From the NCBI GenBank assembly GCA_036516895.1, contig DATDZD010000002.1, positions 13,769 through 77,768 on the forward strand: 64,000 bases of DNA. Reading direction: 5' to 3'. The position numbers were made by a program, and so were the translations under genes. Of the stretch, positions 23,660 to 53,948 are shown piece after piece; within the stretch, counting starts at the first letter, position 1; each line of letters begins with the position of its first letter. The stretch is from Minisyncoccota bacterium. Its GTDB lineage: Bacteria > Patescibacteriota > Minisyncoccia > Phycocordibacterales > PALSA-1337. The notes under the pieces are model-generated. The model saw only the letters and a program-made list of their open reading frames with translations. It made no database searches and was not told the origin of the DNA.

Positions 23660-23670
23660 AAGATAAAAAA

Positions 23671-26770: not shown

Positions 26771-26794
26771 TAAAATCGTAAAAAATATCATCTA

Positions 26795-26966
26795 GGTAAA
26801 ATCGGCTCGCTTACTTGCGGTCGGAAGCACTTATTTTTGTCTCGCAAGCTCAAAAAAATAAATCTTCCTCCTTACAGGAGCGGTACACCTTTCGCATTTG
26901 ATTACAAATGCTCAAGGTCTTGCGAAAGCTTCGCTTTCTCACCCCGCAAGCTCGCACGATTTTACT
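26795..26966 (+). repeat. Intergenic palindromic repeat, family copy B (about 172 bp, carries an internal insertion)
   Basis: GGTAAAATCGGCTCGCTTACTTGCGGTCGGAAGCACTTATTTTTGTCTCGCAAGCTC...CCCGCAAGCTCGCACGATTTTACTT. It lies between the convergent comM and M23 peptidase genes. Confidence 0.6.
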
Positions 26967-26977
26967 TAATTTAGATT

Positions 26978-28054
26978 CTAGAACGGATTCTTGGCTCCGC
27001 GGATTTCAAAGTGCACATGAGGACCAGTAGTCTTGCCGGTTATACCTAACTTTGCAATCATATCTCCTTTTTCCACTCTTTGACCTACAGAGACTAGATT
27101 TGTAGAGTTATGTGCATAGAGAGTCTGTGTGCCATTTGGGTGTGAAATAACAACATAGTTTCCATAACCACCGTGCCAAGAACCATCTGATGTGCTAACA
27201 ATTACTACACCACCAGCTGAAGCGTATATAGGAGTTCCAACAGGAGCGGCGAGGTCAACACCATTATATCCATGAATACTCTGTGATTTCCTTCCAACAT
27301 AAACAGGACGCATATAATACCCAACATATGAAGGAACTTTTGAAGAGACATTTACAGACGAAGATTTGGTATCGTAAGTCGGTTCAGCATCTGGAACAAT
27401 GATTACATCTCCTTCTGCTATGACTGAATTGATAGACAGATTATTGTATTCTAAGATTTCATCAATGTCCGCTTTATATTTTGCCACAATACCCTTTATC
27501 GTATCTCCCTTCTTAACAATATGTTTTATGCCTGAAATAGGAAGAATAACCAAGGTTTGACCTTCTTTTATAGTCTTGTTTTTTCCTAGGTCGTTGGCCC
27601 AAACAATAGTATTGACTGAAACATCAAACATATTGGCTATTTCAGAAAGAGTATCTCCGGAACGCACAATATAAATGCTAATCTGCGTATTTATTGGATT
27701 TTCTATATCAGAAATAGTGCCAGAGGGACCAATTTCGGCTAAAAATATGTTCTCTGAAGCTGAAATGCGTTGTTCGTTTGGAATATTTGGATGAGGATTG
27801 CTATTTAAAGCGGCTTTGAGAACAGTCATGTTTTGAGAATTTGGAGCATCTTGAATGTCAAAAGTCTTAGCTGACGCTTTATCTGTAGCCATATCAGAAA
27901 TAAAAGAAAAAAGACTGGCATTTGCAGTCTGTGGATAAAAAAGTGGCAAAATTATTATAAAAAAAGCAATAAACAGCTCTTTGGAGAGATTTATGGACGA
28001 ATATGTATTTTGGGAAAATGTATAACGAAAAAATTTCATAACAAAAATAGCCAT
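26978..28054 (-). CDS. LysM-domain M23 family metallopeptidase
   Basis: Two LysM repeats (YIVRSGDTLSEIANMF..., HIVKKGDTIKGIVAKY...) plus the M23 catalytic region HGYNGVDLAAP...GPHVHFEIR. Confidence 0.85.
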   Translation of the reverse strand: MAIFVMKFFRYTFSQNTYSSINLSKELFIAFFIIILPLFYPQTANASLFSFISDMATDKASAKTFDIQDAPNSQNMTVLKAALNSNPHPNIPNEQRISASENIFLAEIGPSGTISDIENPINTQISIYIVRSGDTLSEIANMFDVSVNTIVWANDLGKNKTIKEGQTLVILPISGIKHIVKKGDTIKGIVAKYKADIDEILEYNNLSINSVIAEGDVIIVPDAEPTYDTKSSSVNVSSKVPSYVGYYMRPVYVGRKSQSIHGYNGVDLAAPVGTPIYASAGGVVIVSTSDGSWHGGYGNYVVISHPNGTQTLYAHNSTNLVSVGQRVEKGDMIAKLGITGKTTGPHVHFEIRGAKNPF

Positions 28055-31089: not shown

Positions 31090-31182
31090 CATAAAAATCT
31101 TAGAGAATAATTTACTTTCTTGTTATAATCAACGATAGTGCCCTTGTACTACCCATGAAATAAAGGGCTACCCAGTTTAATT

Positions 31183-32151
31183 ATGGGCAAAAGAAATATC
31201 ATTTTGATTTTCTTGTCTCTACTTATTGTAGTTACGGCTTTTTTCTTTGCAGAATATAGAAATATCAAAACAAAAAAAGCGTCTTATAATGCTATACTTT
31301 CTGCTAATACAGAAACTTTGTCTCCGGAGCTTCAAAACGAAGACAGCGACAATGATGGACTAAAGGACTGGGAAGAGATTTTGCTTGGTACAGACCCTCG
31401 CAATTCGGATACTGATGGTGATGAAACAACTGATGGTAAAGAAGCGGATTTGGGTAGGAATCCTCTTGTCAAAGGACCGAAAGATAGCACAAAGATAACA
31501 TCATCAAATTCAACTGCGATAGAAAATGATTTGACTCCGACAGACAAATTAGCTAGAGACTTTTTTGCTCGCTATATGGAACTTCGTCAAGTTGGACTTT
31601 CACAAGACAAGCAAAGCCAACAAGAACTAGTAGGGCAAGTCTTGAAAAGCGGTATTGTTCTAGCTGTTCCAAAAACATACGAATTGAAAGATATTCTGGT
31701 GATTCCAGATGATAGCAAAGAAGCGGTAAAAAAATATGGGAATGATGTGGGGGCGGTATTTAAAAAATATATTAATTCCAATACTAAAAATGAAATGGTA
31801 ATCGCTAAAGAAAGTGTTGATAAAGAAGATCCAAATCTTTTAAAAGAAATTGACCCAATTATTTCTATATACAAAAATATCCTAACAGAACTACTTAAAA
31901 TAAAGACACCGAAATCTTTAAATGAAAACCATATAGATATGATAAATAGCATAAGTACTCTCAAGTTTTCTGCCGAATCATTGAGAAAAATAGATACAGA
32001 TGCTCTCGCTGGTGTTCAGGGGACAAGTATATGGCTCGGAGCGGCAACTATCCTTAATAAAACTTTCAATACCATCAAGAATAGCTTTTCAACAAACGGG
32101 ATTACTTATACAACAAATGAATCTGGCAGTTTTTTTATGCTACAACAATAA
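31183..32151 (+). CDS. Hypothetical membrane-anchored protein with Asp-rich calcium-binding-like repeats
   Basis: N-terminal TM segment, then DSDNDGLKDWEE..DPRNSDTDGDETTDGKEAD resembling DxDxDG repeats. Confidence 0.4.
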   Translation: MGKRNIILIFLSLLIVVTAFFFAEYRNIKTKKASYNAILSANTETLSPELQNEDSDNDGLKDWEEILLGTDPRNSDTDGDETTDGKEADLGRNPLVKGPKDSTKITSSNSTAIENDLTPTDKLARDFFARYMELRQVGLSQDKQSQQELVGQVLKSGIVLAVPKTYELKDILVIPDDSKEAVKKYGNDVGAVFKKYINSNTKNEMVIAKESVDKEDPNLLKEIDPIISIYKNILTELLKIKTPKSLNENHIDMINSISTLKFSAESLRKIDTDALAGVQGTSIWLGAATILNKTFNTIKNSFSTNGITYTTNESGSFFMLQQ

Positions 32152-32153
32152 TC

Positions 32154-33794
32154 ATGAAAAATATTTTGTCTAAAAGAATAATTTCAGGAATACTCATTAT
32201 AACAATGATATCCTCTGTAATAGGATTATCTTTTCCAAAAAAATCACAAGCCATATTTGGTATTGGGGATATTACTTTTGACCCAACATCTTTTGCTCAA
32301 CATGTAATAAATACAGCAAACACTACCGCCACTTCCTTTTCATCTTATTCCATGCAATTCAAAGAATATGTCCTAGACGGACTTGCAACCGCTCTCGTAA
32401 AACAAATCATACGACAAATGACAGCCAGCGTAGTCAACTGGATAAACTCCGGTTTTGAAGGAAGTCCTTCTTTTGTTACAAATCCAGGTTCATTTTTCCT
32501 TGATGTGGCAGACCAAATCACTGGAGATTTTCTGGCGAAAGCTGGTGGACCACTTACAGCACTTTGTTCTCCATTCAGCATAGACATTCGTATCGCTCTA
32601 GCTTTCAAATATCATCCAAATGTTCTCAAAAAATATGAATGTACTTTGGGAAAAATAATTACAAATAGTAAAAATGCTGTAAAAGGTGCGAGTATAAATG
32701 GATTCACAGCTGGAGATTTCAGCCAAGGGGGATGGCCAGCTTTTGTTTCCCTGACTACAGAACCACAGAATAATTATATTGGAGCGTATCTCATAGCGGA
32801 GGATGAGCTTTCTATAAGGGTGGCGAATGCTCAACTTCAGCAAAAAGATGAAATAAGTCAGGGAAGAGGGTTCTTATCTTGGAGAAAGTGTAGAAAAACT
32901 GGGGAGACAGCGACCGTTCAAGGTTCCGAATCAGCATATGTTGACCATGAACTTGGAGATAATAGTGATCCAAGTAGAACAGAGAGCAACGCTCCTGTAG
33001 TTCATACAAACCAAACCGGAAAAGATTGTGAAATCCAAACCCCAGGCTCTATTATCGTAAGCTCTCTTGAGGCAAATATAAATGGTCCTTTGCATGAACT
33101 CCAGCTTGCAGATGAAATAAATGAAATCGTTAATGCTCTCTTTGCTCAACTCGTCACTCAAGTGTTAACAAAAGGATTGGGATCACTTAGCGGAAGCGGT
33201 CCTAGCGATTCTTCTTCATACATCTATCAGATTCAACAAGAAGCAAAAAATGACACATCCCAAGTCGCTCCAATAAAAGCTGAGATATTAAAAAACATGA
33301 CGACATATTTGGACAACACTTTGCAATACAAGAACAATAAAAACCAGTCTCTAAATCTAATGCTTGATGTCAAAAATTCATACGAATTAGCAAAATCATG
33401 TTATGCTGGAAAAATATCTTCTTCCAACCCTCCACTATCTTCATCACAAGCAAGTTTCGCTCAAAGCAAAATAACTGAAATAGATTCCATCATAAATACT
33501 AAGGTAGCACCTCCTGCTACAAAACTTCTCACGGAAGCACAGGAAGCTGATGCTCGTTATGCAACTCTCAAAAAGATAGAAACTGATGTCAATGCAGCAA
33601 AGACTACCAATGACCTCAACATCCAAAGTCAACAATACAGTCAGATGATTCAAAACAGAACACTTACATCAGCGTCAGACATAGCCAATTCTCAACAAGA
33701 GCTAGACGACACCAAAATTGTGATTGATCCAATGAAAACAGACGCTGGAAGAAAACTTCAAGAATGTCAGTTATTTCCATCGGGAAGCATATAA
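32154..33794 (+). CDS. Hypothetical secreted protein (signal peptide)
   Basis: 546 aa. N-terminal hydrophobic signal ending KSQA. No recognisable catalytic motif. Confidence 0.45.
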   Translation: MKNILSKRIISGILIITMISSVIGLSFPKKSQAIFGIGDITFDPTSFAQHVINTANTTATSFSSYSMQFKEYVLDGLATALVKQIIRQMTASVVNWINSGFEGSPSFVTNPGSFFLDVADQITGDFLAKAGGPLTALCSPFSIDIRIALAFKYHPNVLKKYECTLGKIITNSKNAVKGASINGFTAGDFSQGGWPAFVSLTTEPQNNYIGAYLIAEDELSIRVANAQLQQKDEISQGRGFLSWRKCRKTGETATVQGSESAYVDHELGDNSDPSRTESNAPVVHTNQTGKDCEIQTPGSIIVSSLEANINGPLHELQLADEINEIVNALFAQLVTQVLTKGLGSLSGSGPSDSSSYIYQIQQEAKNDTSQVAPIKAEILKNMTTYLDNTLQYKNNKNQSLNLMLDVKNSYELAKSCYAGKISSSNPPLSSSQASFAQSKITEIDSIINTKVAPPATKLLTEAQEADARYATLKKIETDVNAAKTTNDLNIQSQQYSQMIQNRTLTSASDIANSQQELDDTKIVIDPMKTDAGRKLQECQLFPSGSI

Positions 33795-33802
33795 AATAAC
33801 CC

Positions 33803-35707
33803 ATGAAAAAACACCTGCCTACAATTCTCACTTTGATGATAATCCTAGCAATAGGAGTAGCGATTTTGACTCCAAATATAGCCATGGCAACAGTTTCAGG
33901 AACCAGTATAGTTACAGGAGTCGGTGTAAGCGTGATAAATACAACCCTCGCAAACATTGGAAACGCCATTCTCGGCTGGACAGCCGTTCTTGTTACAGCA
34001 GGCGGAGCTTTCTTGAGTATGGCCATAAACCTCACTACCCATATAGACAAAATATATGAAACTGTATCAGGTATAAAATCCGTATGGGTTACGATAAGAG
34101 ATATATCTAGCATATTTATAATATTTGCTCTCTTATATTTCTCCATAAGGACAATATTGGGTTTTGGCGGTTATAGCACCACAGGCAATCTCAAGGGTCT
34201 TATAGTAAATATATTTATAGCCGGTCTTCTTATAAACTTCAGTCTTTTCTTCGTCAGAGTGGCTATTGACGCTTCAAATCTAGTCTCTTTGCAGTTCTAT
34301 AATGCTATTGCTCCCGATACTTCTAAAAACTGGAGCGTTGGAGATGTATTCAATAATGGCGGTCTCTCAAATGTGTTCATGCAGAGTCTCAAGATTCCGA
34401 CAATATACCAACAATCAAAGAGTTCACAAGGTTTTGATATAGCGGCTGGAATCGGTTTTGCTATCCTTGGAGGAATCATCATGATGGTTACTGCGGCTAT
34501 AAGCTTCTTCGCCGCTGCCATTGCTTTTACTGCTCGCACCGCTATTTTACTTTTTGTTATGGCTATGTCTCCTATATTCTTCGTGGGAATGATATTTCCG
34601 GAAGTAAAAAAGAAAGTGTCCGATAAAATTTCTGGTTTGCTTTATAGTCAATGTGTATTTATGCCTGTATACCTTTTTCTCATGTACATTGCTCTCAAAA
34701 TAATAAGTGATGAAAATTTCATGAAAATATTCAACCCAAATACTTCTGGAGTAGCCGATACAAATGGTTTTGGTCCTGTTTGGATAGGTATTATCATTCA
34801 ATATGCCATCGCCCTTATATTTATAAATATTCCACTAGTAGCGGCAATAGAAATGGGAGCAATCGGTATGAAATGGGCGCCCGGATCATCCGGAGCAAAT
34901 GCTGTAAATAAATGGCTTGGGGGAAAGATTGGGGGATTTGCTGGTAGGAATATTGCTGGTAGAGCTGGGCAGTTGTCTGGTGTGGGCTTTGATAGAATGG
35001 CAGCTTCAGCTCAAGGTTCTTCTCTTGGCAAAGGTACATCAACTGTTCTTCGCGCTCTTGGTATTAGTCAGGGAATTCGTGGCGGATTAACTGCTACAGA
35101 GAAAGGAAAATATGGTGGAACACAAAGTCTTGGTGATATTCAGAAGGAAAATAAGGAGAGGGCAAGAACTATTTCTGGGGTACAGAGAATGAAAGAACAA
35201 CATTTAGCTCTTGCAGCAGTCATTGGTTCAAAGAATACTTCAATAACACCAGCGCAAATGGATAAATTTAGAGAAACTGTGGATAAAATGGGTAATAAAG
35301 ATTTTGAAAATATGAATTTTGAAACCATTAAAGACCCTGTTCTTGCTTCTAACCTATCATCTAAACAAGCTGAATCATTATTGGAAGGAGATATACTTAC
35401 CTCGCAACAGAAAGACGAGTTCAAAAAAATACGAAAAGATAAGATTGTCACAATCATTAATTCTGGAACAGCAACAGATGCCGAAATACATATGAAAAAA
35501 TTATCAGGAAAAGAATTGTCTAAAATGGACAAGACTGTTATTAAGAATCCGAATGTCTTAAAATACTTAACCCCAACTCAACTATTAGAAATGAGAGATA
35601 TTGATGGAGATACTAAAAAATTCATTGGTGACTATATAGAAAATACTGCACTAGGAGACCATAAAGCAAAAGGTTATATAAGAAAAAATCGTACGGAGTG
35701 GAGCTAA
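33803..35707 (+). CDS. Polytopic membrane protein with a hydrophilic C-terminal domain, a VirB6/TrbL-like candidate
   Basis: 634 aa with at least 7 hydrophobic helices in the first 360 aa, then a soluble C-terminal half. The architecture and position upstream of VirB3-like and VirB4 genes resemble Gram-positive VirB6 analogues. This is architecture-based inference only. Confidence 0.4.
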   Translation: MKKHLPTILTLMIILAIGVAILTPNIAMATVSGTSIVTGVGVSVINTTLANIGNAILGWTAVLVTAGGAFLSMAINLTTHIDKIYETVSGIKSVWVTIRDISSIFIIFALLYFSIRTILGFGGYSTTGNLKGLIVNIFIAGLLINFSLFFVRVAIDASNLVSLQFYNAIAPDTSKNWSVGDVFNNGGLSNVFMQSLKIPTIYQQSKSSQGFDIAAGIGFAILGGIIMMVTAAISFFAAAIAFTARTAILLFVMAMSPIFFVGMIFPEVKKKVSDKISGLLYSQCVFMPVYLFLMYIALKIISDENFMKIFNPNTSGVADTNGFGPVWIGIIIQYAIALIFINIPLVAAIEMGAIGMKWAPGSSGANAVNKWLGGKIGGFAGRNIAGRAGQLSGVGFDRMAASAQGSSLGKGTSTVLRALGISQGIRGGLTATEKGKYGGTQSLGDIQKENKERARTISGVQRMKEQHLALAAVIGSKNTSITPAQMDKFRETVDKMGNKDFENMNFETIKDPVLASNLSSKQAESLLEGDILTSQQKDEFKKIRKDKIVTIINSGTATDAEIHMKKLSGKELSKMDKTVIKNPNVLKYLTPTQLLEMRDIDGDTKKFIGDYIENTALGDHKAKGYIRKNRTEWS

Positions 35708-36417
35708 AATATTTTAAAATTATGGATAATCAAAATACACAAAACTTACCTGCAGATATTCTCAAAGCGATTGAGTCTTCTGATGTCTATACTCATCTTG
35801 AAAGTATAGGGGATAGATACAATCTTCTTATTGATCAAATTGGTCAATTAAATGCTGATACAGAAAAATTAATGGTTGGGAAATTAAAATCAGAGATATT
35901 TGTAATCACCATCGCAAAAGATTTGGAAATATCACAAGAAATAGCACAAAAAATATCTGACGATATCAATAATGAGATATTTACTGGTCTTCGTGAATCT
36001 CTTCGTAAAATGCAGGAACAGAGTGAAAAAAAATTCACAAACCCGCTCACACCTCCACCTCCTCCTACTTTCCAAATCCCTAAACCAGTACCACTAACAC
36101 CAACCACTCCTATACCCAAACCGCCGATTACTCAACCTCCTCAAAAAATAAACATCTCTTCAATAGAAAAAGTCGGCAACTTTACCATTGAAAAACGCCC
36201 ATTATCAAATTCCCCCCAATATAAAGATACAAACTTAAAAAGAGAAGATGTTTTGAGGGATATGGAAAACCCAACAACAAAGAGTGGTGTATCTTTTGTA
36301 GACCATCTCCTCTCCAAGCCATTATCAAATGAAATGCAAACAGAAACAAAAAATAAAACCGCTCCTCCACAAGGTTTGCCAGAATATACAGCCGACCCAT
36401 ATAGAGAGCCCATATAG
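35698..36417 (+). CDS. Hypothetical proline-rich protein
   Basis: PPPPTFQIPKPVPLTPTTPIPKPPITQPPQK low-complexity linker. No TM segment. Confidence 0.35.
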   Translation: MELKYFKIMDNQNTQNLPADILKAIESSDVYTHLESIGDRYNLLIDQIGQLNADTEKLMVGKLKSEIFVITIAKDLEISQEIAQKISDDINNEIFTGLRESLRKMQEQSEKKFTNPLTPPPPPTFQIPKPVPLTPTTPIPKPPITQPPQKINISSIEKVGNFTIEKRPLSNSPQYKDTNLKREDVLRDMENPTTKSGVSFVDHLLSKPLSNEMQTETKNKTAPPQGLPEYTADPYREPI

Positions 36418-36435
36418 TAATGCTATAATAAACCC

Positions 36436-36864
36436 ATGCGTTTTCAAGTCCCACAGTTCATTGAAGTAGAAGATAAAATTTTCGGGCCATTAACCCTGAA
36501 ACAATTCATATATCTTGCCGGGGGAGCGGGACTTTCTTTTGTCATATATCAATCCCTCGGCTCTCTTGTATTGGCATTCTTGCCTATCACCATCATCATG
36601 TCTTTTTCTTCAGCATTGGCCTTTTATAAAATAAACAATAAGCCCTTCATTTTCGTCGTTGAAGCGGCATTCAAATACTTTTTCTCAAGCAAATTGTATA
36701 TATGGAAAAAAGGGGAGAACAGCAAAGCGTTGTCAAAATCAGATTCGGAAGCAAAACAATACGCCTCTGTCATGGTTCCAAAAATTTCAGATAGCAAACT
36801 AAAGGATTTGACATGGAGCTTGGATATAAAAGAGAGCATGTACACAGATAGAAATCAAAAATAA
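36436..36864 (+). CDS. Small two-TM membrane protein, VirB3-like candidate
   Basis: 142 aa with a hydrophobic hairpin LAGGAGLSFVIYQSLGSLVLAFLPITIIMSF. It lies directly upstream of the VirB4-like ORFs. Confidence 0.35.
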   Translation: MRFQVPQFIEVEDKIFGPLTLKQFIYLAGGAGLSFVIYQSLGSLVLAFLPITIIMSFSSALAFYKINNKPFIFVVEAAFKYFFSSKLYIWKKGENSKALSKSDSEAKQYASVMVPKISDSKLKDLTWSLDIKESMYTDRNQK

Positions 36865-36865
36865 T

Positions 36866-37498
36866 ATGGCTACGAGTCAAAAAACAACTCAAGATTTTGT
36901 ACCGATACGAGAAATACGCGACGGTGTTGTCATATTGAAAGATGGTTCAATGCGCGCTTTGGTATTGGCTTCGTCTCTCAATTTCGCCTTGAAATCAACC
37001 GATGAACAAAACGCCATAATTCTTCAATTTCAAAATTTCCTCAACTCTCTTGACTTCTCTGTGCAGATTTTCGTCCAGTCAAAAAAGCTTGATATAAGGC
37101 CGTATATTGCTCTACTTGAAGAACGATACAAGGAGCAAGTGACTGAACTTATGAAAATACAAACCAGAGAATACATAGAGTTTATAAAGACTTTCGTGGA
37201 AAATTCCAATATTATGACAAAAAGTTTCTTTTTGATAGTGCCTTACATGCCCCCAACGCTTACTGCAAGCAAAAATCCGGTCAGCAATCTCTTTAATAAA
37301 AAAACTGAAGATAAAACAGTTATAAACGCAGAATTTGAAGAATACAGAAGCCAGCTGGAACAGAGGGTGGGGGTAGTAGAGCAGGGTTTGGTCAGATGCG
37401 GAATAAGGGTGGCGGAACTTGGAACAGAGGAGGTGGTAGAATTGTATTATAAAATATTCAACCCCGGAGAAACAGAGAAACCGATACAGATAAACTGA
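36866..37498 (+). CDS. VirB4 N-terminal-domain-like protein (first part of a split VirB4)
   Basis: DFVPIREIRDGVVILKDGSMRALVLASSLNFALKSTDEQNAIILQFQNFLNSLDFSVQIFVQS resembles the N-terminal region of Gram-positive VirB4/ConE ATPases. The 210 aa here plus the 613 aa of the next ORF approximate full-length VirB4. Confidence 0.4.
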   Translation: MATSQKTTQDFVPIREIRDGVVILKDGSMRALVLASSLNFALKSTDEQNAIILQFQNFLNSLDFSVQIFVQSKKLDIRPYIALLEERYKEQVTELMKIQTREYIEFIKTFVENSNIMTKSFFLIVPYMPPTLTASKNPVSNLFNKKTEDKTVINAEFEEYRSQLEQRVGVVEQGLVRCGIRVAELGTEEVVELYYKIFNPGETEKPIQIN

Positions 37499-37545
37499 TT
37501 ATTCACCAGAAAATCTCCACATAAACAAATAAAAACAATAAAAAA

Positions 37546-39387
37546 ATGAGTATATTTAGCAAATTATTAGGAAAAAAAGAACAAGAAAAGCCAATCGTTT
37601 CTCTTATGCCACAAGAGATATATGAAGCTGGCATCTTGGAACTCAAAGATGTCATTGCCCCTTCGGCTCTCAAAATAAGCCCTAAAGAAATAAACCTTGG
37701 AGAAAAGGTGGCTAGAACATTTTTTGTTATATCCTATCCACGCTTTCTTTCTGAAAGCTGGTTTGCTCCTATTATAAATCTTGATAAAGTCTTCAATATT
37801 TCTATTTTCATCCATCCAGTAGACACCGCAAAAATACTTCGTCATTTCCAAAAGAAAGTAGCGGAGGTCCAAAGCCAAATATCACAAAGAGAAGATAAGG
37901 GTTTAGTGCGGGACCCTATGCTTGATACCGCCTACCAAGACCTTGAGGTGCTCCGAGACAGCTTGATGCAAGCACAAGAAAAGATATTTGATGTTGGCGT
38001 ATACATCACTCTATATGGAGACTCTAGTGCAGAGCTTGATAAAACAGAGTCAGAAATAAAATCCATCCTGGAATCAAAGCTCGTATACATAAAGCCCGCT
38101 CTCTTTCAACAGGAAAGTGGGTACAGAAGCGTTCTTCCTATTGCCAATGATGAGCTAGCGGTGCACTCAAAGCTCAATTCTTCTCCTCTTTCTTCTCTCT
38201 TTCCTTTCGTTTCTTTTGACCTAACATCAGACAAAGGAATTCTCTACGGAATCAATCGCCACAACTCGTCTCTTGTACTTTTTGATAGATTTCTCTTGGA
38301 AAATTACAATTCTGTAACATTTGCAAAAGCTGGAGCGGGAAAATCATACTGCACAAAGCTGGAAATACTCCGTACTCTTATGTTTGACACAGATGTCATT
38401 GTTATAGACCCGGAAAAAGAATACGAGTACATGGCAGAAGCCACTGGAGGAAAATATTTTAATATTTCTCTAAATTCAGAACATCATATCAACCCTTTTG
38501 ACCTTCCTATTCCTAGAGAAGACGAGTCGGCTATAGATGTCCTTCGTTCAAACATTATCAATCTTGTCGGACTCTTTCGCATAATGCTCGGAGGTCTATC
38601 CCAAGAAGAAGACGCTATTATAGACCGAGCTATTACAGAGACATACGCTCTCAAAGATATTACAGCAGAATCAAACTTCAGAAATGTTGAACCGCCACTT
38701 CTATCCGACTTTGAGCTTGTTTTGGCGGGTATGGAAGGAGCCGAATCGCTTGTAGAACGACTGACAAAGTATACAAAAGGCACATGGTCGGGCTTTATAA
38801 ACCGTCCTTCAAATGTTGATATAAACAAAAAATTCGTGGTTTTTTCACTTCGCGATATGGAAGACGAACTCAAACCAGTAGCAATGTATATTGTTACTCA
38901 CTATATCTGGAACGCTATACGCAAACAGCTTAAAAAACGCCTTTTGGTCATAGATGAAGCATGGTGGATGATGAAATCAGAAGATACGGCTTCATTTCTA
39001 CTCGGTCTGGCAAAAAGAGGTCGCAAATACTATCTAGGTCTAGCCACAATCACCCAAGATGTTGATGATTTTCTCAAATCTCCGTATGGTTTGCCTATTA
39101 TTACAAATTCTTCAATTCAAATACTCCTCAAACAATCTCCTTCATCAATAGACAATATCCAAAGAACTTTCAACTTAACAGACGAAGAAAAATATCTTCT
39201 CATTGAATCGGATGTGGGGGAGGGAATATTCTTTGTCGGGCTAAAGCATGTAGCCATAAAAGTCGTAGCCTCATATACAGAAGACCAGATTATTACCACA
39301 AACCCCGCCCAGGTCATGGCAATTCAGCAAGCAAAGAAAGATTTGGAAATGAGTCATGCGATGACGGAGAAAGAAGTGTCAGTATAA
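37546..39387 (+). CDS. VirB4/TraC/TrbE-family conjugation-type ATPase (C-terminal part)
   Basis: Walker A TFAKAGAGKSYCTKLE, Walker B RLLVIDEAWWMM, and a conserved ITQDVDDF region typical of VirB4. Confidence 0.7.
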   Translation: MSIFSKLLGKKEQEKPIVSLMPQEIYEAGILELKDVIAPSALKISPKEINLGEKVARTFFVISYPRFLSESWFAPIINLDKVFNISIFIHPVDTAKILRHFQKKVAEVQSQISQREDKGLVRDPMLDTAYQDLEVLRDSLMQAQEKIFDVGVYITLYGDSSAELDKTESEIKSILESKLVYIKPALFQQESGYRSVLPIANDELAVHSKLNSSPLSSLFPFVSFDLTSDKGILYGINRHNSSLVLFDRFLLENYNSVTFAKAGAGKSYCTKLEILRTLMFDTDVIVIDPEKEYEYMAEATGGKYFNISLNSEHHINPFDLPIPREDESAIDVLRSNIINLVGLFRIMLGGLSQEEDAIIDRAITETYALKDITAESNFRNVEPPLLSDFELVLAGMEGAESLVERLTKYTKGTWSGFINRPSNVDINKKFVVFSLRDMEDELKPVAMYIVTHYIWNAIRKQLKKRLLVIDEAWWMMKSEDTASFLLGLAKRGRKYYLGLATITQDVDDFLKSPYGLPIITNSSIQILLKQSPSSIDNIQRTFNLTDEEKYLLIESDVGEGIFFVGLKHVAIKVVASYTEDQIITTNPAQVMAIQQAKKDLEMSHAMTEKEVSV

Positions 39388-39567
39388 GTAAAATCGTGCG
39401 AACATCCGTATATATCAGGTGTGGAGAGAATACTTTCTTTTTCCGGGTACGAGAATTTTTTACTAAAAATTCTCTCAAGTCCTCGCGCCGACGCGCTCGG
39501 AAGCCCCTCCAAAAGAAGTATTCTCTCCACACCTAGCATACAATAAAGAATGCGAGTCAATTTTACC
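39388..39567 (-). repeat. Intergenic palindromic repeat, divergent family copy E (about 180 bp, reverse orientation)
   Basis: It starts GTAAAATCGTGCGA and ends GCGAGTCAATTTTACC. The internal part is itself a long palindrome (GGTGTGGAGAGAATACTTCTTTT ... AAAAGAAGTATTCTCTCCACACC). It lies directly after the VirB4 stop. Confidence 0.5.
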
Positions 39568-39572
39568 AAAAC

Positions 39573-39989
39573 ATGAACATGGATGAACAAAACAAAGAAA
39601 ACAGAATAGGAACAATAGCTATATTAGTCCTTATTTTCGTATCCGGTCTAGCTGACGCAGGAACATTAATCCCTTTTGTGGGCGACTTCGTAAGCCCTTT
39701 GTTTTGGACATGTATGACATACTATCTTTACAAGATAAAACATGGGCTTCTAAATTGGAAAATATTTGCTCCGAGTATTGTCTCTTTTGTATCGGAATTT
39801 ATCCCTGTAGTGCAAGCATTCCCAACAATTATAGGCGCTACTATAGCCATAATATTTGTATCCCGACTTGAAGATAAGACTGGAATATCTCTAATGAAAC
39901 CCTTATCGCAAGGTCAGAAAGTTCACTTACCCAGCAGAACACCACCTCTTAATCAAGGCGGAATAAGGCAACCAAGAAATATATTATAA
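39573..39989 (+). CDS. Hypothetical small membrane protein
   Basis: 138 aa with 2-3 hydrophobic helices. Confidence 0.4.
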   Translation: MNMDEQNKENRIGTIAILVLIFVSGLADAGTLIPFVGDFVSPLFWTCMTYYLYKIKHGLLNWKIFAPSIVSFVSEFIPVVQAFPTIIGATIAIIFVSRLEDKTGISLMKPLSQGQKVHLPSRTPPLNQGGIRQPRNIL

Positions 39990-40018
39990 TAGTCAGAATT
40001 TATGATAAAATATAGCAA

Positions 40019-41068
40019 ATGAAATCTCGCACAAAAATACTATTGAAAACTACACTGAATATCTTCTATGTTACATTTTTTACAATAATTTTTTCTTTTA
40101 TATTTGTCATATCTATTCACGCCCAAATTCCCAACTCTATTGATGGTGTAGAGATTGGCTCTGACCCAGAAAATCCCAATCCGGGACAAAATGTAACCGT
40201 GAGTGTAGAGAGTTATAATACAGACTTGAATTCTGCTTCTGTTGTTTGGCTTGTAAATGGCAAGAATTATGCTCAAGGTACTGGTTTGAAATCTGTGAGT
40301 GTTTCTGCGCCGTCTTTGGGTAAAAATACAAGTATTGTGACAATTATTATGACCGCCGAAGGAAAGGAGGTCAGAAAATCAATAACAATAAAATCAGGGT
40401 CAGTAGATTTAGTATGGGAAAGTGAAGGTTATATTCCACCTTTTTACAAAGGCAAAGCGGTTTTCGCCTATGAAAATCTTGTCAAAATAACTGCCATGCC
40501 ACACCTTTCTAATAATGAAAGTGCAGAATTGGACTCTCGCACTCTAATATATAAATGGAAAAAGAATGACAAGGTAGTCCTAGATCAGTCTGGCTATGGA
40601 AAACAAACTCTGATTATAAAAGAAGATATTCCTAGACCTATTGATATAGAATTGGAAGTAACAACAAAGAATGGCAGTCAAAAGGGTGTGGCGTTTATAA
40701 CTCTTCAGCCGGGAGAGCCATCAATCTCTTTCTATGAAGAAGACCCTCTCTATGGAGTGTTATACAATAAAGCTATTATTAACAGAATCAGTCTTTCAAA
40801 TCAAGAAATAAATATCCGTGCTGTGCCATATAATTTTACTTCATACGCCAAAAACTCTCCTTTGACCTATTCTTGGAGTATAAATAATCTTCTTCAGCCA
40901 GAACTTTCCACAAACCAGAGTATTATCTTGAGAACAAGAGGGGATACAGAAGGAAGTTCGGCTATTTCTCTTGAAGTTAGAAATACAGATGACATACTTC
41001 AAGGAGCACGCAATACCATAGATGTATTATTTAATAAAAGACCAATAGAAAGCAGTGTGGCCTTTTGA
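40019..41068 (+). CDS. Hypothetical secreted or membrane-anchored beta-rich protein
   Basis: 349 aa with an N-terminal TM/signal (IFYVTFFTIIFSFIFVISIHA) and repetitive beta-strand-like sequence. Confidence 0.45.
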   Translation: MKSRTKILLKTTLNIFYVTFFTIIFSFIFVISIHAQIPNSIDGVEIGSDPENPNPGQNVTVSVESYNTDLNSASVVWLVNGKNYAQGTGLKSVSVSAPSLGKNTSIVTIIMTAEGKEVRKSITIKSGSVDLVWESEGYIPPFYKGKAVFAYENLVKITAMPHLSNNESAELDSRTLIYKWKKNDKVVLDQSGYGKQTLIIKEDIPRPIDIELEVTTKNGSQKGVAFITLQPGEPSISFYEEDPLYGVLYNKAIINRISLSNQEINIRAVPYNFTSYAKNSPLTYSWSINNLLQPELSTNQSIILRTRGDTEGSSAISLEVRNTDDILQGARNTIDVLFNKRPIESSVAF

Positions 41069-41077
41069 TAAAAAGAA

Positions 41078-42226
41078 ATGAAAAAAATAATTTCTTACAA
41101 TTTCATAATGCTCATATATCTCGCTATAATCTTTGGTTCTAGCATAAATATTTCTCATGCTCAAAATACATACAAACTTCTTGAGCCGTTGCCCAATATA
41201 ATGGGCACTGGGCAAAAAGGTGAGTGTGTTGATGAAAAAAATAAAACTATAACTTGTATAAACCTTGAAACTTATGTGGGCTATGTCTTCAAACTAGCTA
41301 TAGCTCTTGCTGTATTTTTGGCAGTGGTAGTCCTCATATATGGCGGTTTTGAATACATGCTAGGCGAAGCCATAGGTACCAAAGCTGCCGCAAAATCAAG
41401 AATGACAAATGCCATTTATGGGCTTCTTGGAGCGTTGGTTTCATATTTGATATTGGTCACAATAGACCCAAGATTGGTGCAGATAAATACGAATATTCCG
41501 GAGATAAATATTAAAATAGATAGAGAAACTGCGAATTTTCAGAAGCAGTTAAGTAATGATTTGAACAATATGTCAGGAGAATCAAGATTGAAGGTAATAG
41601 AAGCTACAAATAAGATAAAGGAGCTTGAAAAAGAAAGAGGTGGTGTTATGCAAAAACTTGGTTCAGGTACCAGTATTGAAAACGAAAATTATGTAAAAGA
41701 ATTGGCTAGAATTGACCAGGAAATCAAAGAGAATAAATCTACAGTAATAACAGAGTCGGCCAAATCATTAGGGTCAAGCCAGTTTGGTAAGATTTTTGAT
41801 GTAATTCGTACTCCTCAAAACTATAATGCGACTTCCTTAAAGATTACAGACGAAGCTCAAGGAGTTATAGATAGTAACAGAAATACTATTGTTAAAAACT
41901 ATGATGATTATGCAAAACAGCTTGATGAGATTCAAGAGTATGAAAAAGCTAGAGAAGTTAGAACGACAAAAGAATTTCTTTTAGATCAAATAAAACAGGA
42001 ACAGGAATTGCGTGGGATGATTAATCACTATAATCACGAAGACCCTATCAAAAAACCTTATTGGGAAAAACAAATGAGAGATCTACTTGCAAAATATGCC
42101 AGTCCACCAAAAGACGAGATGGTTAATAAATATAGAAATTATCCTGATATATTAACTCAATATAATGAATATAAGACTGTCCGAGCAAACATAATTAGTC
42201 AAACCCTAAAACCCCCAGGAAAATAA
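41078..42226 (+). CDS. Hypothetical protein with a signal peptide, a hydrophobic helical hairpin, and a long coiled coil
   Basis: Signal MKKIISYNFIMLIYLAIIFGSSINISHA, then Cys-containing segment, then two TM helices (VFKLAIALAVFLAVVVLIY...LLGALVSYLILVTI). This is a VirB2/TrbC-like topology at the N-terminus. Confidence 0.4.
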   Translation: MKKIISYNFIMLIYLAIIFGSSINISHAQNTYKLLEPLPNIMGTGQKGECVDEKNKTITCINLETYVGYVFKLAIALAVFLAVVVLIYGGFEYMLGEAIGTKAAAKSRMTNAIYGLLGALVSYLILVTIDPRLVQINTNIPEINIKIDRETANFQKQLSNDLNNMSGESRLKVIEATNKIKELEKERGGVMQKLGSGTSIENENYVKELARIDQEIKENKSTVITESAKSLGSSQFGKIFDVIRTPQNYNATSLKITDEAQGVIDSNRNTIVKNYDDYAKQLDEIQEYEKAREVRTTKEFLLDQIKQEQELRGMINHYNHEDPIKKPYWEKQMRDLLAKYASPPKDEMVNKYRNYPDILTQYNEYKTVRANIISQTLKPPGK

Positions 42227-42227
42227 T

Positions 42228-43487
42228 ATGACCAAAAAAATAATTTTCATCTTCATGCTCATTATTCTCCTCGCCGGAGGCGTGTATTACTTTTTTTTCT
42301 ATCAGAGCAAGCCCATGTCACTTACCGATACAGCAGAAGCTCCTCCAACAGGATTCAGTCCTATAAACCGCTCTAGTGTTGCTACACCAAAAAATACAAC
42401 ACCATCAGCAACAAGCACCCCCAGACAGAATACAGTAACGGAGCAAGCAAGAATACCAGCCCTACGCCACTTGAGCACAACCCCTGTAGGTGGCTTCATG
42501 GCAAGCTCTACAGCCAGTTCTACAGTGGTTCGTTATGTGGATAGGGGAGTAGGTCATATATACGAATCTTTAAGTACAAAGAACGAAATAAAAAAGATAT
42601 CAAATACCACAATTCCTCGTATATATGAAAGTTATTGGAATAAAAACCTAAATACTGCCATTTTTAGATACATGAAAGACGAGACAGATACAATAGCAAA
42701 TTTCTATGCTGAAATAAGACCAATCAAAACATCAACCAGCACTTTAGAAACAATAAATGAAGTAAATAGCGAAATAAAAGGAAAATTCATATCTTCGGAT
42801 ATAAAAGAAATAGCTGTCTCTCCAAAAAAAGACCGTGTTTTCACTTTCAATATAGAAAATGGAAGAGGGATAGGGTATATCTCTGGTTTTGATGAAAGTA
42901 AAAAGACAAAAATCATTGACATACCTATTACTCAAGTCAATATAGAGTGGCCAGAAGAAAATACTCTTGCAATTACAACAAAATCATCCGGTGTATCATC
43001 TGGATATTTATATCTAATAGACATAAAAAAACCATCTCTCAAAAAAATACTGGGCGGGATTACAGGTTTGAATGCAAAGGTAAGTCATGACGCAAAGAAA
43101 ATACTTTTCTCATCTAGCAATTCAAAGGGATTTGCGATGAGTATATACAATATAAAAGATTCTTCTACACAAGAAATGGTCTTTAGAACTACCGCTGACA
43201 AATGCGTATGGAGCAAAATTCGCCCAAACGAACTTTATTGCTCCGTCCCAGTAGAATTCCCAGCAGGAATGTATCCTGATGATTGGTACAAGGGGGTAAT
43301 ATCATTTGCAGACCAGATATGGCAATTAGACACAACGACAGGAGAAGTGCATCTTATGGCAAATCTTTTGAAAATTTCTGATGAACTTATTGATGCTGTA
43401 GACCTGACTCTAGACCCGAAAGAAGACTATTTATTCTTTGTAAATAAAAGAGATTTGACTCTTTGGTCGCTGGATTTGAATAGATAA
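42228..43487 (+). CDS. Hypothetical membrane-anchored protein with a Ser/Thr-rich linker and a beta-propeller-like C-terminal region
   Basis: 419 aa with an N-terminal TM helix. No catalytic motif recognised. Confidence 0.4.
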   Translation: MTKKIIFIFMLIILLAGGVYYFFFYQSKPMSLTDTAEAPPTGFSPINRSSVATPKNTTPSATSTPRQNTVTEQARIPALRHLSTTPVGGFMASSTASSTVVRYVDRGVGHIYESLSTKNEIKKISNTTIPRIYESYWNKNLNTAIFRYMKDETDTIANFYAEIRPIKTSTSTLETINEVNSEIKGKFISSDIKEIAVSPKKDRVFTFNIENGRGIGYISGFDESKKTKIIDIPITQVNIEWPEENTLAITTKSSGVSSGYLYLIDIKKPSLKKILGGITGLNAKVSHDAKKILFSSSNSKGFAMSIYNIKDSSTQEMVFRTTADKCVWSKIRPNELYCSVPVEFPAGMYPDDWYKGVISFADQIWQLDTTTGEVHLMANLLKISDELIDAVDLTLDPKEDYLFFVNKRDLTLWSLDLNR

Positions 43488-43509
43488 AATTATGCAAAAT
43501 TATTGTTTA

Positions 43510-43617
43510 GGTAAAATCAGCTCGCCTACTTGCGCTCGGAAGCTCTTTTATTTGTTCTCCGCCTGCTGGCGGATAAAAATAAAAGACTTCCTCACCGCAG
43601 GCTCGCACGATTTTACT
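43510..43617 (+). repeat. Intergenic palindromic repeat, family copy C
   Basis: GGTAAAATCAGCTCGCCTACTTGCGCTCGGAAGCTC...CACCGCAGGCTCGCACGATTTTACT. It lies between convergent genes (the 42228 gene and yidC). Confidence 0.6.
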
Positions 43618-43623
43618 AAATAA

Positions 43624-45152: not shown

Positions 45153-46499
45153 ATGAATGAACATGCACAACTTTGGGAAAATGCCTTGGTAGAAATAGAA
45201 CTTGCTGTTTCTGAAGCTAATTTTTCCACATGGTTTAAAGGCAGTTTTATCTTAAAGCAAGAAGAGGGAACTATATACCTCGGAGTTCCCAACTCGTTTA
45301 CTCGCGACTGGCTTTATAAGAAATTTCATCCTGTAATATTGAGAACTCTTAGAAAAATGAATGAGCAAGTCCGCTCTCTTGAGTATGTTATAACAAAAGA
45401 CGCTGAAAAGAAGAAAGCTGAGGAAAAAAAGAAAGCTTTGCCAGCGCCTACCACATCTATGCCTCTTCAAGATTTCTATATAAACAAAGAAGATAATCTA
45501 AATCCAAGATATATCTTTGAAAACTTTGTTGTGGGACCTTTCAATGAGCTTGCCAATGCCGCCTCAAGAACTGTGGTAAAAAATCCGGGTACTTCTTATA
45601 ATCCTTTGTTCATATATGGAAATACAGGTCATGGCAAAACTCATCTTATCCAAGCGATAGGAAATCATATAAAGCAGGACCATCCTCAGAAAAAGGTCTT
45701 TTATTTGACTTCTGAAAGATTTGGTTCAGAGTATTTCAGTGCTCTTCAGGGAAATAAAGCTCAACAATTTAAAGAAAAATACAGAAAGTATGATGTTATT
45801 ATTATGGACGATGTTCAATTTTTCTCGGGAAAAGATAAATTCCAAGAAGAATTTTTTTATCTTTTTAATACTTTCCACGAAAGCAATCGTCAACTCGTCT
45901 TTTCTTGCGACAAACACCCAAACTTCATTCCAGGACTTGAAGACCGCATTAAATCAAGATTTAATGCGGGCATGATTATTGAATTGCCCGCTCCAGACCA
46001 TGAATCTCGCATAGCTATCCTCAAAGCCAAAAGTTTGGCAAATAATGTAATGTTAGAAAATAACATTCTTGAATTTTTAGCTTCAAATATTGAAAGTAAT
46101 GTCAGGGAACTTGAAGGAGTAATAAATACTCTTGTTTGTCAGACACAGTTGAAAGGTCGTCCTCTTTCCTTGATTGAAATTAAAAATTTAGTAAAAAATA
46201 GCACAAAGCCAAAGAAAAACATATCAATAAAGGATGTTATAAAGCTTGTTTCAGATTTTTATAATATAAACGAGGAAAGTGTATATGATAAAACAAGAAA
46301 AAAAGAGGTGGTAAAGCCAAGACAAGTGATTATGTATCTTCTTAGAGAGGACTTAAATGTGTCATTTCCTTCAATAGGAGATAAAATGGGCGGAAGAGAC
46401 CATACAACAGTTATTCACTCTTATGAAAAAGTTAGAGAAGAAATCAAAACTGATTCAATTTTAATGGAGGAAATATCCCAAATACGGTCCATGTTATAA
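45153..46499 (+). CDS. dnaA: Chromosomal replication initiator protein DnaA
   Basis: 448 aa. The AAA+ region has NPLFIYGNTGHGKTHLIQAIGN and IIMDDVQFFSGKD. The C-terminal domain IV has a DnaA signature-like IGDKMGGRDHTTVIHSYEKV. Confidence 0.9.
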   Translation: MNEHAQLWENALVEIELAVSEANFSTWFKGSFILKQEEGTIYLGVPNSFTRDWLYKKFHPVILRTLRKMNEQVRSLEYVITKDAEKKKAEEKKKALPAPTTSMPLQDFYINKEDNLNPRYIFENFVVGPFNELANAASRTVVKNPGTSYNPLFIYGNTGHGKTHLIQAIGNHIKQDHPQKKVFYLTSERFGSEYFSALQGNKAQQFKEKYRKYDVIIMDDVQFFSGKDKFQEEFFYLFNTFHESNRQLVFSCDKHPNFIPGLEDRIKSRFNAGMIIELPAPDHESRIAILKAKSLANNVMLENNILEFLASNIESNVRELEGVINTLVCQTQLKGRPLSLIEIKNLVKNSTKPKKNISIKDVIKLVSDFYNINEESVYDKTRKKEVVKPRQVIMYLLREDLNVSFPSIGDKMGGRDHTTVIHSYEKVREEIKTDSILMEEISQIRSML

Positions 46500-53579: not shown

Positions 53580-53948
53580 ATGGAAACACAAACAGGTATA
53601 GGAGAATTTGGACCAATTTATGAAGGAATAAAAGGAAAATATGCTATAGATTTTTTATTGAAAAAGAAATCTGGGGAAGTTCCTGGTGCAATGAAAAGAA
53701 AAGAATTGGGAAATATTGATTTTATTTATGGAAAGCAGGGTGAGCAAGGTTACGGATTAGCTCATATTGAAGAATATCATCCAGATGTTCTTCCTTATCT
53801 TGTGTCAATTATTCAACATGGAGAAATATTCAAGCAAGCTAAAGATCGCATTATTATTGTTCATAAAGTTCCTTTAGAAAAAGGGGTGGCCGTGATAAGA
53901 CTGGATTGGAATGGTATACGGAAACAGTGGCTTGTTAGTGCTTTTTAA
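53580..53948 (+). CDS. Hypothetical protein
   Basis: 122 aa with no recognised family. It is preceded by the conserved motif shared with comM. Confidence 0.45.
   Translation: METQTGIGEFGPIYEGIKGKYAIDFLLKKKSGEVPGAMKRKELGNIDFIYGKQGEQGYGLAHIEEYHPDVLPYLVSIIQHGEIFKQAKDRIIIVHKVPLEKGVAVIRLDWNGIRKQWLVSAF

Follow-up and report, generated by a model that had tools for sequence, protein, structure and literature searches.

The locus

This work concerns a cluster of genes encoding a type IV secretion system (T4SS) in a stretch of 64,000 nucleotides from a Minisyncoccota bacterium (contig DATDZD010000002.1 of assembly GCA_036516895.1). We call the whole stretch the window and give coordinates as positions within it. 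Its list of open reading frames (ORFs) holds a run of 11 co-oriented genes on the plus strand, from 31183 to 43487, whose products measure in order 322, 546, 634, 239, 142, 210, 613, 138, 349, 382 and 419 aa. The gaps between the genes are 2, 8, -10, 18, 1, 47, 185, 29, 9 and 1 nt. Five of the products can be recognised as parts of a T4SS: a polytopic protein with the fold of VirB6, PrgI (VirB3), a TrsD-like protein that is the N-terminal domain of VirB4 encoded as a gene of its own, the VirB4 ATPase itself, and a pilin of the VirB2-like kind. The other six, which are secreted or membrane proteins, are uncharacterised.

The initial annotation of this DNA had described the cluster as lying at 33803-43487. 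Every ORF it listed is present on the plus strand, and the same-strand run it described is real, but that run is only the last nine genes. The true start lies two genes earlier, at 31183, where the genes for the secreted proteins of 322 and 546 aa join the block by their tight spacing and by synteny. Upstream of the block are uvrD/pcrA (28233) and then ksgA/rsmA (30187). Downstream, and convergent with it, are yidC (43624), rnpA (44380) and rpmH, followed by dnaA (45153-46499) and dnaN (46717). Because it is flanked by yidC-rnpA-rpmH-dnaA-dnaN, the block adjoins the replication origin region. Its G+C content (0.35-0.39) is like that of the surroundings. Promoter and terminator scans of the cluster gave nothing above shuffled expectation, and no Rfam family was found in it.

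Conservation in related genomes

A scan of one genome per species recovered at least 582 relatives of VirB4, and the loci analysed here are those of the best 80. All 80 come from Patescibacteria metagenome-assembled genomes, and their VirB4 proteins are 78-94% identical to that of the window. The genomes are labelled Paceibacterota, Parcubacteria, Taylorbacteria and Zambryskibacteria, and on many of them automated submission has put a generic 'Saccharibacteria' label. The order uvrD-ksgA-322-546-634-(239)-PrgI-TrsD-VirB4-(138)-349-382-419-yidC-rnpA-dnaA-dnaN is kept in the approximately 50 loci whose contigs reach far enough. The comparison of synteny that the initial annotation had called for thus finds the cluster in related genomes at the same chromosomal place.

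Median identity to the window proteins is 82% for VirB4, a value somewhat inflated since the loci were ranked by VirB4 similarity, and 67% for TrsD, 60% for DnaA, 59% for PrgI, 56% for UvrD and 54% for DnaN. The accessory and VirB6-like proteins have medians of 29-41%. VirB4 exceeds DnaA in identity by 14-26 points in 50 of 50 loci. To judge from these figures the constraint on VirB4 is unusually strong for a secretion ATPase, stronger than that on DnaA. We take the cluster to be vertically inherited along with its housekeeping neighbours.

The closest plasmid-borne VirB4 proteins are at most 35% identical and are found in elements of Firmicutes and Actinobacteria, where relaxase, MobC, VirD4 and an SLT hydrolase are encoded beside PrgI-VirB4. 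It is important to realize that this is a ranking by similarity and not a tree: the 80 nearest genomes are Patescibacteria and the plasmid homologues, at 35% or less, are from monoderms, which is consistent with a Patescibacteria VirB4 clade.

The ATPase, its detached domain and PrgI

The motor of the system is the 613-aa VirB4 ATPase at 37546-39387 (+), which corresponds to the C-terminal two-thirds of a canonical VirB4. It belongs to the NCBIfam family NF045971, conju_CD1110, where it reaches 366.9 bits (cut-off 325; E 2e-109; model positions 178-733), and it matches the Pfam TraG P-loop domain (E 2.9e-26, 92.5 bits). The initial annotation was right to see a VirB4 with a Walker A motif here. 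Walker A (AKAGAGKS) and Walker B (LLVIDEAW) are both intact in the translation, and both align to the motifs of an unsplit VirB4. In a BLASTP comparison the protein aligns to residues 210-754 of an unsplit 783-aa VirB4 from Clostridium perfringens, at 32% identity (E 5e-84).

The N-terminal domain is found in the preceding gene, which encodes the 210-aa TrsD-like protein (36866-37498, +). This protein matches the N-terminal 120-230 or so residues of VirB4 models, including NCBIfam VirB4_plasma (1.2e-10) and positions 2-121 of the CD1110 model. It also matches the NCBIfam TrsD/TraD model, with an E-value of 8.7e-7 that falls under that model's cut-off. BLASTP places it at residues 21-193 of the same C. 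perfringens protein (E 2e-6).

The two ORFs are in different frames, with a TGA and a 47-nt A-rich spacer between them, and the initial annotation entertained joining them into one VirB4. That idea is wrong. A stop codon divides TrsD from VirB4 in 80 of 80 related genomes, while the spacers vary between -4 and 486 nt and use all three frame offsets. The stop is conserved and the spacers and frames are not, and the split is a conserved arrangement of two genes, TrsD plus VirB4. A single frameshifted VirB4 made from the joined ORFs is ruled out on the same grounds.

One nucleotide before the TrsD-like gene ends the gene for a 142-aa PrgI family protein (36436-36864, +). PrgI is the VirB3 equivalent of monoderm T4SSs, a membrane hairpin that docks VirB4. 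The window protein has its hydrophobic hairpin at residues 31-62 and scores above the gathering score against Pfam PF12666 (E 8.9e-9, 36.2 bits against 27), so the VirB3-like protein with two transmembrane (TM) segments that was first noted here is PrgI. It is present in 80 of 80 loci.

The VirB6-like protein

The 634-aa protein at 33803-35707 (+) has an 'extended VirB6' or TcpH-like architecture. It has about eight hydrophobic segments, with a TM bundle at approximately residues 40-352, a disordered linker, and a C-terminal helical domain at 443-634 that is confidently predicted (mean pLDDT 76 in AlphaFold2). Its long C-terminal domain recalls the architecture of TcpH. The gene lies upstream of PrgI-VirB4, the position that prgH has in pCF10. 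The predicted polytopic helical bundle can be superposed on solved VirB6, and the protein matches TrwI/VirB6 at the level of fold, with a sequence identity of 9%. The initial description of a polytopic, VirB6-like protein with a soluble C-terminal domain agrees with both the architecture and the fold. At fold level, then, the models favor a VirB6-like protein.

Sequence methods give little. The window protein has no match to the Pfam TrbL/VirB6 family (PF04610). Three of 25 orthologues match TrbL below threshold (best E 2.6e-4), and one homologue aligns with positions 5-210 of the 215 in PF04610 at E 0.18. A profile of the family run against sequences in the Protein Data Bank (PDB) found nothing, as did a Foldseek search with the protein, and hhalign gave a probability of 1.9% for a match to PrgH. 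Some homologues carry a precomputed Pfam tag, PF19590, for which a permissive scan gave nothing.

The pilin-domain protein

The initial annotation noted a VirB2-like hydrophobic hairpin in one of the distal proteins. This is the 382-aa product of 41078-42226 (+), which has a signal peptide, a conserved YxLLxPLP motif, a two-TM hairpin at approximately residues 63-129 and a C-terminal extension. The hairpin is that of the T4SS_pilin family (Pfam PF18895). With 23.5 bits the window protein falls slightly short of the gathering score (26.6), and 23 of 25 syntenic orthologues match the family (E <0.01, best 1.1e-8); one matches TrbC/VirB2. The profile of this family found nothing significant among PDB sequences.

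Across 53 orthologues the pilin part forms a single BLAST cluster, while the C-terminal extensions, typically 150-290 aa long, fall into 25 clusters that are mutually unrelated. The extension in the window is about 250 aa long, K/E-rich and helical, and it is common only to the four closest relatives. Some orthologues instead carry 3D, NlpC/P60 or CHAP domains in the extension, or a LAS-like HxnD...HxH motif (example pilin orthologues are L032:13862-14797, L055:13859-14836, L039:13074-13976 and L053:12286-13128, where the L numbers denote related loci). A modular pilin exterior that is swapped this fast would fit a function in host-specific contact or in opening a wall. Such an exterior may also explain in part why VirB1 homologues are associated with virB4 in Paceibacteria (PMC12102498).

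Accessory secreted and membrane proteins

The best conserved of the accessory proteins has 349 aa (40019-41068, +) and is for this reason likely a core extracytoplasmic component, as far as conservation can tell. It is anchored or secreted by an N-terminal hydrophobic segment and probably consists of Ig-like beta-sandwich modules, since the window protein and three orthologues match BiPBP_C, an Ig-like family, weakly. It occurs in 77 of 80 loci, and its family comprises 2781 representatives at 50% clustering, nearly all of them about 340 aa long. It has no sequence relative in the PDB.

The block opens with an N-anchored or secreted protein of 322 aa (31183-32151, +) that has a bacterial thrombospondin type-3 (TSP3) repeat and is probably an accessory or adhesin-like component. 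The match to Pfam TSP3_bac is above the gathering score (E 9.8e-6), and eight orthologues match too. The protein has one N-terminal hydrophobic segment, and its gene is upstream of the cluster in 47 loci. Before it, at 31101-31129, is a promoter-like TAGAGA-17-TGnTATAAT, a kind of site not enriched over shuffles.

The next gene (32154-33794, +) encodes the secreted 546-aa protein. Its N-terminal domain contains cysteines, is highly conserved and has an unassigned fold, and its C-terminal part is a bundle of long helices. There is a weak fold hint to TraC/VirB5; against this, the protein is over twice as large as VirB5, and the conserved N-terminal domain has no VirB5 counterpart. We consider it a weak candidate for a VirB5-like partner of VirB6.

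The block closes with an N-anchored extracytoplasmic protein of 419 aa (42228-43487, +), possibly a beta-propeller of the TolB/DPP-IV type. It has one N-terminal TM segment. A profile search of the PDB reached TolB at an E-value of only 0.043, and one orthologue matches DPPIV_N at 0.003. Its 664 homologues are all unnamed and without a Pfam family, and it was found in 58 loci. The family profiles of the 546-, 349- and 419-aa proteins gave nothing significant against PDB sequences.

The two remaining proteins are less widely detected. The proline-rich, soluble protein of 239 aa (35698-36417, +) starts with a GTG that overlaps the 634-aa gene, with an alternative ATG at 35722. It is 10.9% proline, in line with the proline-rich protein that the initial annotation placed after the polytopic one, and it includes a PPPPP tract and lacks TM segments. 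It evolves fast, being detectable in 33 of 80 loci at a median identity of 29%, and no family match was found for it in Pfam, in NCBIfam or in a Pfam scan of its orthologues. The small membrane protein of 138 aa (39573-39989, +) has two or three TM segments, with hydrophobic segments at 15-33 and 69-97, and appears restricted to the lineage, being detected in only 17 of 80 loci. The same three kinds of scan gave no significant family.

When 128 orthologues of the accessory proteins were pooled and scanned with Pfam, the TSP3 matches and the weak Ig-like ones were all that came up. The small membrane protein and the three proteins with a signal or anchor segment (40019-41068, 41078-42226 and 42228-43487) are as first described. 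The initial annotation saw candidates for novel T4SS subunits in most components; this is fair only of the six accessory proteins, and the others have been matched to known components. No protein of the cluster gave a Pfam, NCBIfam or PDB-sequence signal for a VirB8-like component (PrgL/TcpC) or a VirB1-like hydrolase. Three kilobases before the cluster, at 26978-28054 (-) and divergently upstream of uvrD, is a gene for an M23 peptidase with two LysM domains. Its best NCBIfam matches are cell-division endopeptidases such as DipM, all far under cut-off, and it is kept at the same place in the nine related loci whose flanks reach it. This peptidase could be a cell-division hydrolase, or it could be the T4SS-associated VirB1 substitute discussed in PMC12102498.

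Is the cluster a mobile element?

The initial annotation reported no relaxase, coupling protein (VirD4) or integrase in the window. Pfam scans covered the approximately 50 ORFs of at least 120 aa that were taken as likely genes across the 64 kb, and no relaxase or type IV coupling protein (T4CP, VirD4) domain was found among them. The statement about integrases needs correction. A tyrosine recombinase is encoded at 21610-22623 (-), about 9 kb from the cluster with housekeeping genes between. It is the sole recombinase in the window and is of the XerC/XerD type, scoring 246 bits with the XerD model and 227.6 bits (cut-off 220) with the archaeal-type XerA model. No mobile-element integrase flanks the cluster.

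Repeats of a family at the cluster had also been pointed out, and they are real. A palindromic intergenic element of about 120 nt lies at 43500-43621, between the convergent end of the cluster and yidC, and folds with -49.7 kcal/mol (z -7.1). Other copies are at 14732-14830, 23578-23669 (inverted) and 26790-26970; they show up as repeat families D1, D4 and I1-I3 and in an alignment. Its termini are GGTAAAATC.GCTCGCC ... GCTCGCACGATTTTAC. The terminus GCTCGCACGATTTTAC has 5 hits where 0.02 would be expected, among them those at 39388 and 43601. The copy of the terminus at 39388-39403, on the minus strand (GTTCGCACGATTTTAC), is part of a near-perfect intergenic hairpin of 148 nt (39388-39535) between virB4 and the distal genes. 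This hairpin has its 16-nt terminus in common with the 120-nt element but otherwise differs from it. It folds with -62.7 kcal/mol (z -11), has no match in Rfam, and could be a terminator, a processing site or an insertion like a miniature inverted-repeat transposable element (MITE).

The terminus motif is absent from 82 fetched loci, 80 of which are the related T4SS loci, and there are no direct repeats that bound the block specifically. From their sequences the palindromic elements look like genome-specific REP/MITE-like elements (REP, repetitive extragenic palindromic) or structured terminators. The idea that the repeats at 39388 and 43500 are cluster boundaries or att sites is ruled out, since they belong to a genome-wide family of intergenic palindromes that is absent from related loci.

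These observations bear on the idea that the block is the decaying remnant of an integrative and conjugative element (ICE), with the split VirB4 as a frameshifted pseudogene. VirB4 does lie in two ORFs in different frames, there are repeats at 39388 and 43500, and the window does have a tyrosine recombinase. However, all 80 of 80 genomes keep the split, their ORFs are intact and their spacers vary, and TrsD plus VirB4 is a known arrangement. The repeats are genome-wide and there is no anomaly in G+C. We regard an ICE remnant as very unlikely, and in effect ruled out, because synteny with housekeeping genes is kept in about 50 genomes, VirB4 is conserved across species, the only recombinase is Xer-type, and relaxase and T4CP domains were not found.

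Comparison with known systems

Quinonero-Coronel et al. (2025, PMC12102498) have surveyed 3,035 Patescibacteria genomes and catalogued T4SSs across 2,400 genomes. They describe a monophyletic Patescibacteria VirB4 clade nested in MPF-FATA (MPF, mating-pair formation), with TrsD as the most abundant associated component and with PrgI/VirB3, VirB6 and VirB2-like pilins near virB4. Relaxases occur in only 103 of the 3,035 genomes, rarely near virB4, and T4CP homologues are mostly far from it. The T4SSs of Paceibacteria and Microgenomatia lie near dnaA, dnaN, rnpA, ksgA and rpmH. The same authors put forward an import hypothesis, and in their account the distant t4cp is not essential in Southlakia. 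Wang et al. (2023, PMC10633639) found that the T4SS and pilins of Southlakia, a member of the Saccharibacteria, are essential for epibiotic growth while comEC is dispensable, and they named the export of proteins as one option. According to a review from 2025 (PMC12857230), Patescibacteria T4SSs stand alone among those of monoderms in being essential and in having putative pili. A 2026 preprint on the acquisition of host RNA (bioRxiv 10.64898/2026.06.21.733656) describes tubular structures, maybe T4SS pili according to its authors, at the interface of a Minisyncoccota parasite and its host.

By its genes and their arrangement the locus is a typical copy of this published origin-proximal system of the ultrasmall Patescibacteria (CPR bacteria). 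It matches PMC12102498 feature for feature and is not new, so the novelty implied by the initial annotation was overstated. With the Patescibacteria-clade T4SSs (PMC12102498; Southlakia epibionticum SEML1_0006-0019, PMC10633639) the window shares VirB4, a separate TrsD, PrgI/VirB3, VirB6 and a VirB2-like pilin, the lack of a relaxase or T4CP nearby, and probably monoderm (MPF-FATA) ancestry. With Paceibacteria it also shares the neighbours dnaA, dnaN, rnpA, ksgA and rpmH. There are differences as well. The window has one pilin-domain gene with a long hypervariable extension instead of an array of 2-11 short pilins. In Southlakia peptidase and lysozyme genes lie directly downstream of virB4, which is not so in the window, and some orthologues of the window locus fuse hydrolase domains to the pilin protein instead. 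The conserved accessory set (322, 546, 349 and 419 aa) is not named in the portions of PMC12102498 and PMC10633639 that were available to us.

The monoderm MPF-FATA systems (Prg/Pcf of pCF10, Tcp of pCW3, the CD1110/CTn type, and Trs of pGO1/pSK41) have a VirB4 of the CD1110 family as the window does, although identity to the window VirB4 is only about 28-35%. The gene order VirB6-like, PrgI, VirB4 is shared with pCF10 and a C. perfringens plasmid, and TrsD is a separate gene in pGO1 (PMC12102498). Unlike these systems, the window lacks relaxase, MobC, VirD4/TcpA, a VirB8-like protein (PrgL/TcpC) and a dedicated SLT/CHAP hydrolase beside VirB4. It has a VirB2-like pilin, which the Gram-positive systems are without, and it is chromosomal, origin-proximal and apparently inherited vertically, not carried on a plasmid or ICE. 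Because the best plasmid homologues are from Firmicutes and Actinobacteria and the order VirB6-like, PrgI, VirB4 is shared, we conclude from the comparison that the system probably descends from monoderm conjugation machinery (MPF-FATA, CD1110/Prg/Tcp/Trs-like).

More distant systems are instructive too. The MPF-T VirB/Trw systems of R388 and pKM101 resemble the window in the fold-level match of the 634-aa protein to TrwI/VirB6, in a pilin with a two-helix hairpin, and in a secreted helical-bundle protein, here the 546-aa one with its weak hint of a TraC/VirB5 fold, encoded directly upstream of the VirB6-like gene. The order virB5-virB6 is that of MPF-T systems. Unlike them the window has no outer-membrane core (VirB7, 9, 10) and no VirB11, and sequence similarity is essentially nil at the 9% identity given above. 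Helicobacter pylori ComB and Ced of the Sulfolobales (CedB) share with the window a lone VirB4-type ATPase, a locus without coupling protein or relaxase, and import as the direction, which for the window is a hypothesis. The window VirB4 is not a member of this group, since its weak match to NCBIfam CedB (E 2e-8, 33 bits) is far under the cut-off of 700. ComB differs further in being a diderm MPF-T system with VirB7-10.

What the system may do

We believe the genes at 31183-43487 quite probably encode a chromosomal, origin-proximal Patescibacteria T4SS of the Paceibacteria/Parcubacteria type that acts as a VirB4-powered conduit for non-conjugative exchange with a host, most likely for uptake. 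In the single membrane, VirB6 would form a platform to which PrgI and TrsD would attach hexamers of VirB4. VirB4 would extract the Sec-inserted pilin-domain protein from the membrane and polymerise it into a pilus or tube, which would cross the wall with the aid of the extracytoplasmic accessory proteins (322, 546, 349 and 419 aa). The species-specific extension of the pilin would be displayed outward and would engage or open the host envelope. The conduit would serve non-conjugative exchange, most likely the uptake of host macromolecules such as nucleic acids.

ComB and Ced, relatives of this T4SS that lack a T4CP, are importers. We favor uptake because of these relatives and because the organisms lack nucleotide synthesis, although in our subjective judgement the uptake of host macromolecules, taken as a claim of its own, falls a little short of an even chance. 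An apparatus for host interaction or uptake, and not for conjugation, is what the initial annotation had proposed, and the proposal matches the published view (PMC12102498, PMC10633639, PMC12857230).

Several points weigh against the reading of this block as a conduit for host exchange. The genome is known from its sequence alone, and for the system as a whole both the transport substrate and the direction are proposals. Among the proteins of the cluster none could be recognised as VirB8-like or VirB1-like. The VirB6 similarity is at fold level only, with the Pfam, hhalign and Foldseek results described above, and the pilin match is just sub-gathering. A C-terminal extension of 250 aa is atypical for a VirB2 that polymerises. 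Membership of the accessory genes is based on operon-like spacing and on synteny, and the housekeeping neighbours share the same synteny. Finally, the genome could encode a T4CP or relaxase beyond these 64 kb, and many genomes have VirD4 homologues far from virB4 (PMC12102498).

The strongest alternative is that the same apparatus exports effectors, injecting proteins such as toxins, hydrolases or host-manipulating effectors into the host or releasing them onto it. Most non-conjugative T4SSs export proteins. The option was raised by Wang et al. (PMC10633639), and effector delivery is also the subject of speculation in a PNAS paper of 2024. The peptidoglycan-hydrolase domains at the C-terminus of some pilin orthologues (3D, NlpC/P60, CHAP) could act on the host wall, but they could equally remodel the bacterium's own wall in a VirB1-like role. 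A coupling protein is the usual recruiter of cytoplasmic substrates and none was found in the cluster or the window; the distant t4cp, as noted above, is not essential in Southlakia. Nor can any gene of the cluster be recognised as a candidate effector. We consider effector export a possibility to be taken seriously, if a somewhat unlikely one.

It is also conceivable that the system only builds a surface filament for attachment to the host, an organelle of adhesion or pilus display through which nothing else is transported. For pilus biogenesis VirB4 is enough by itself in several T4SSs (PMC12857230), the hypervariable and surface-exposed pilin extension looks like a determinant of host specificity, and the operon includes a TSP3-repeat protein. 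However, the window already has type IV pilus genes, and such pili give adhesion and motility in Saccharibacteria (PMC12857230). The retention of a VirB6-type channel protein and the extreme conservation of VirB4 suggest more than adhesion. A purely adhesive role therefore seems improbable.

Less probable again is that the system works in conjugation or DNA export, with its relaxase, oriT and coupling protein encoded at other places in the genome. Its machinery has homologues in the conjugative T4SSs of monoderms, and the distant VirD4 homologues already mentioned fit this idea, as does the fact that the inspection was limited to 64 kb of this genome. Against it stand the scarcity of relaxases in Patescibacteria and the fact that none was found among the scanned ORFs of the window. 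Strict vertical inheritance by oriC and a constraint above that on DnaA would not be expected of a transfer module, and the system is essential for growth in Southlakia (PMC10633639). As for the ICE remnant, it is hardly tenable on the evidence given with the repeats.

Returning to a T4SS that takes material from the host, we offer a speculative and on balance unlikely proposal for the unnamed genes. They might be lineage-specific subunits by which a T4SS of the Gram-positive type has become an uptake organelle that pierces the host. In this proposal the 546-aa protein would act as VirB6's VirB5-like partner in the stalk or at the tip, and the Ig-like 349-aa and propeller-like 419-aa proteins would form a sheath that spans the wall. 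The pilin would form a filament with a swappable module, a coiled coil here and a peptidoglycan hydrolase elsewhere, that recognises or breaches the host envelope, and VirB4 would pull in host nucleic acids without a coupling protein.

Other features of the window

The type IV pilus genes are on the minus strand at 620-5547 and comprise a pilin-like gene with an N-terminal methylation motif (620-2416), PilC/T2SSF (2423-3637) and PilB/T2SSE (3697-5547). A second PilB-like ATPase is encoded at the other end of the window (61420-63234, -), next to tRNA-Thr-CGT at 63241-63316. A loose tRNA cluster at 16088-17821 (-) consists of Gly-TCC, Pro-TGG, Gly-GCC and Arg-TCG with small ORFs between them. 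Genes of mobile or phage type are found at 53580-57296: a PBECR1 nuclease-domain gene (53580-53948), a gene for a BRO-N domain protein (55571-56434) and one for a TrmB-like regulator (56538-57296). Between them are ruvC and yebC, and they adjoin a direct repeat that contains two type III hammerhead ribozymes (Rfam RF00008) about 1 kb apart. These lie at 58973-59027 (+; 49.4 bits, gathering score 48.5) and 57958-58012 (+; 42.2 bits, E 3e-7). Near them are repeated modules of a strong ribosome-binding site plus ATG (58441-58477 and 59040-59076), and the ORFs around them, from 57.3 to 59.5 kb, have no family matches.

Implications

Few envelope machines are conserved, as the T4SS is, across the large and mostly uncultivated radiation of the Patescibacteria, and the sole species tested cannot grow epibiotically without it. 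To the published picture this locus adds support for VirB6 at the level of fold, a weak hint that the 546-aa protein is VirB5-like, and a VirB4 that appears more constrained than DnaA. It also adds four widely conserved extracytoplasmic proteins without a family and a pilin whose C-terminal module is swapped between species, and these are targets for structural work and genetics. The system they accompany is a leading candidate for the acquisition of host material by bacteria that lack nucleotide, amino-acid and lipid synthesis.

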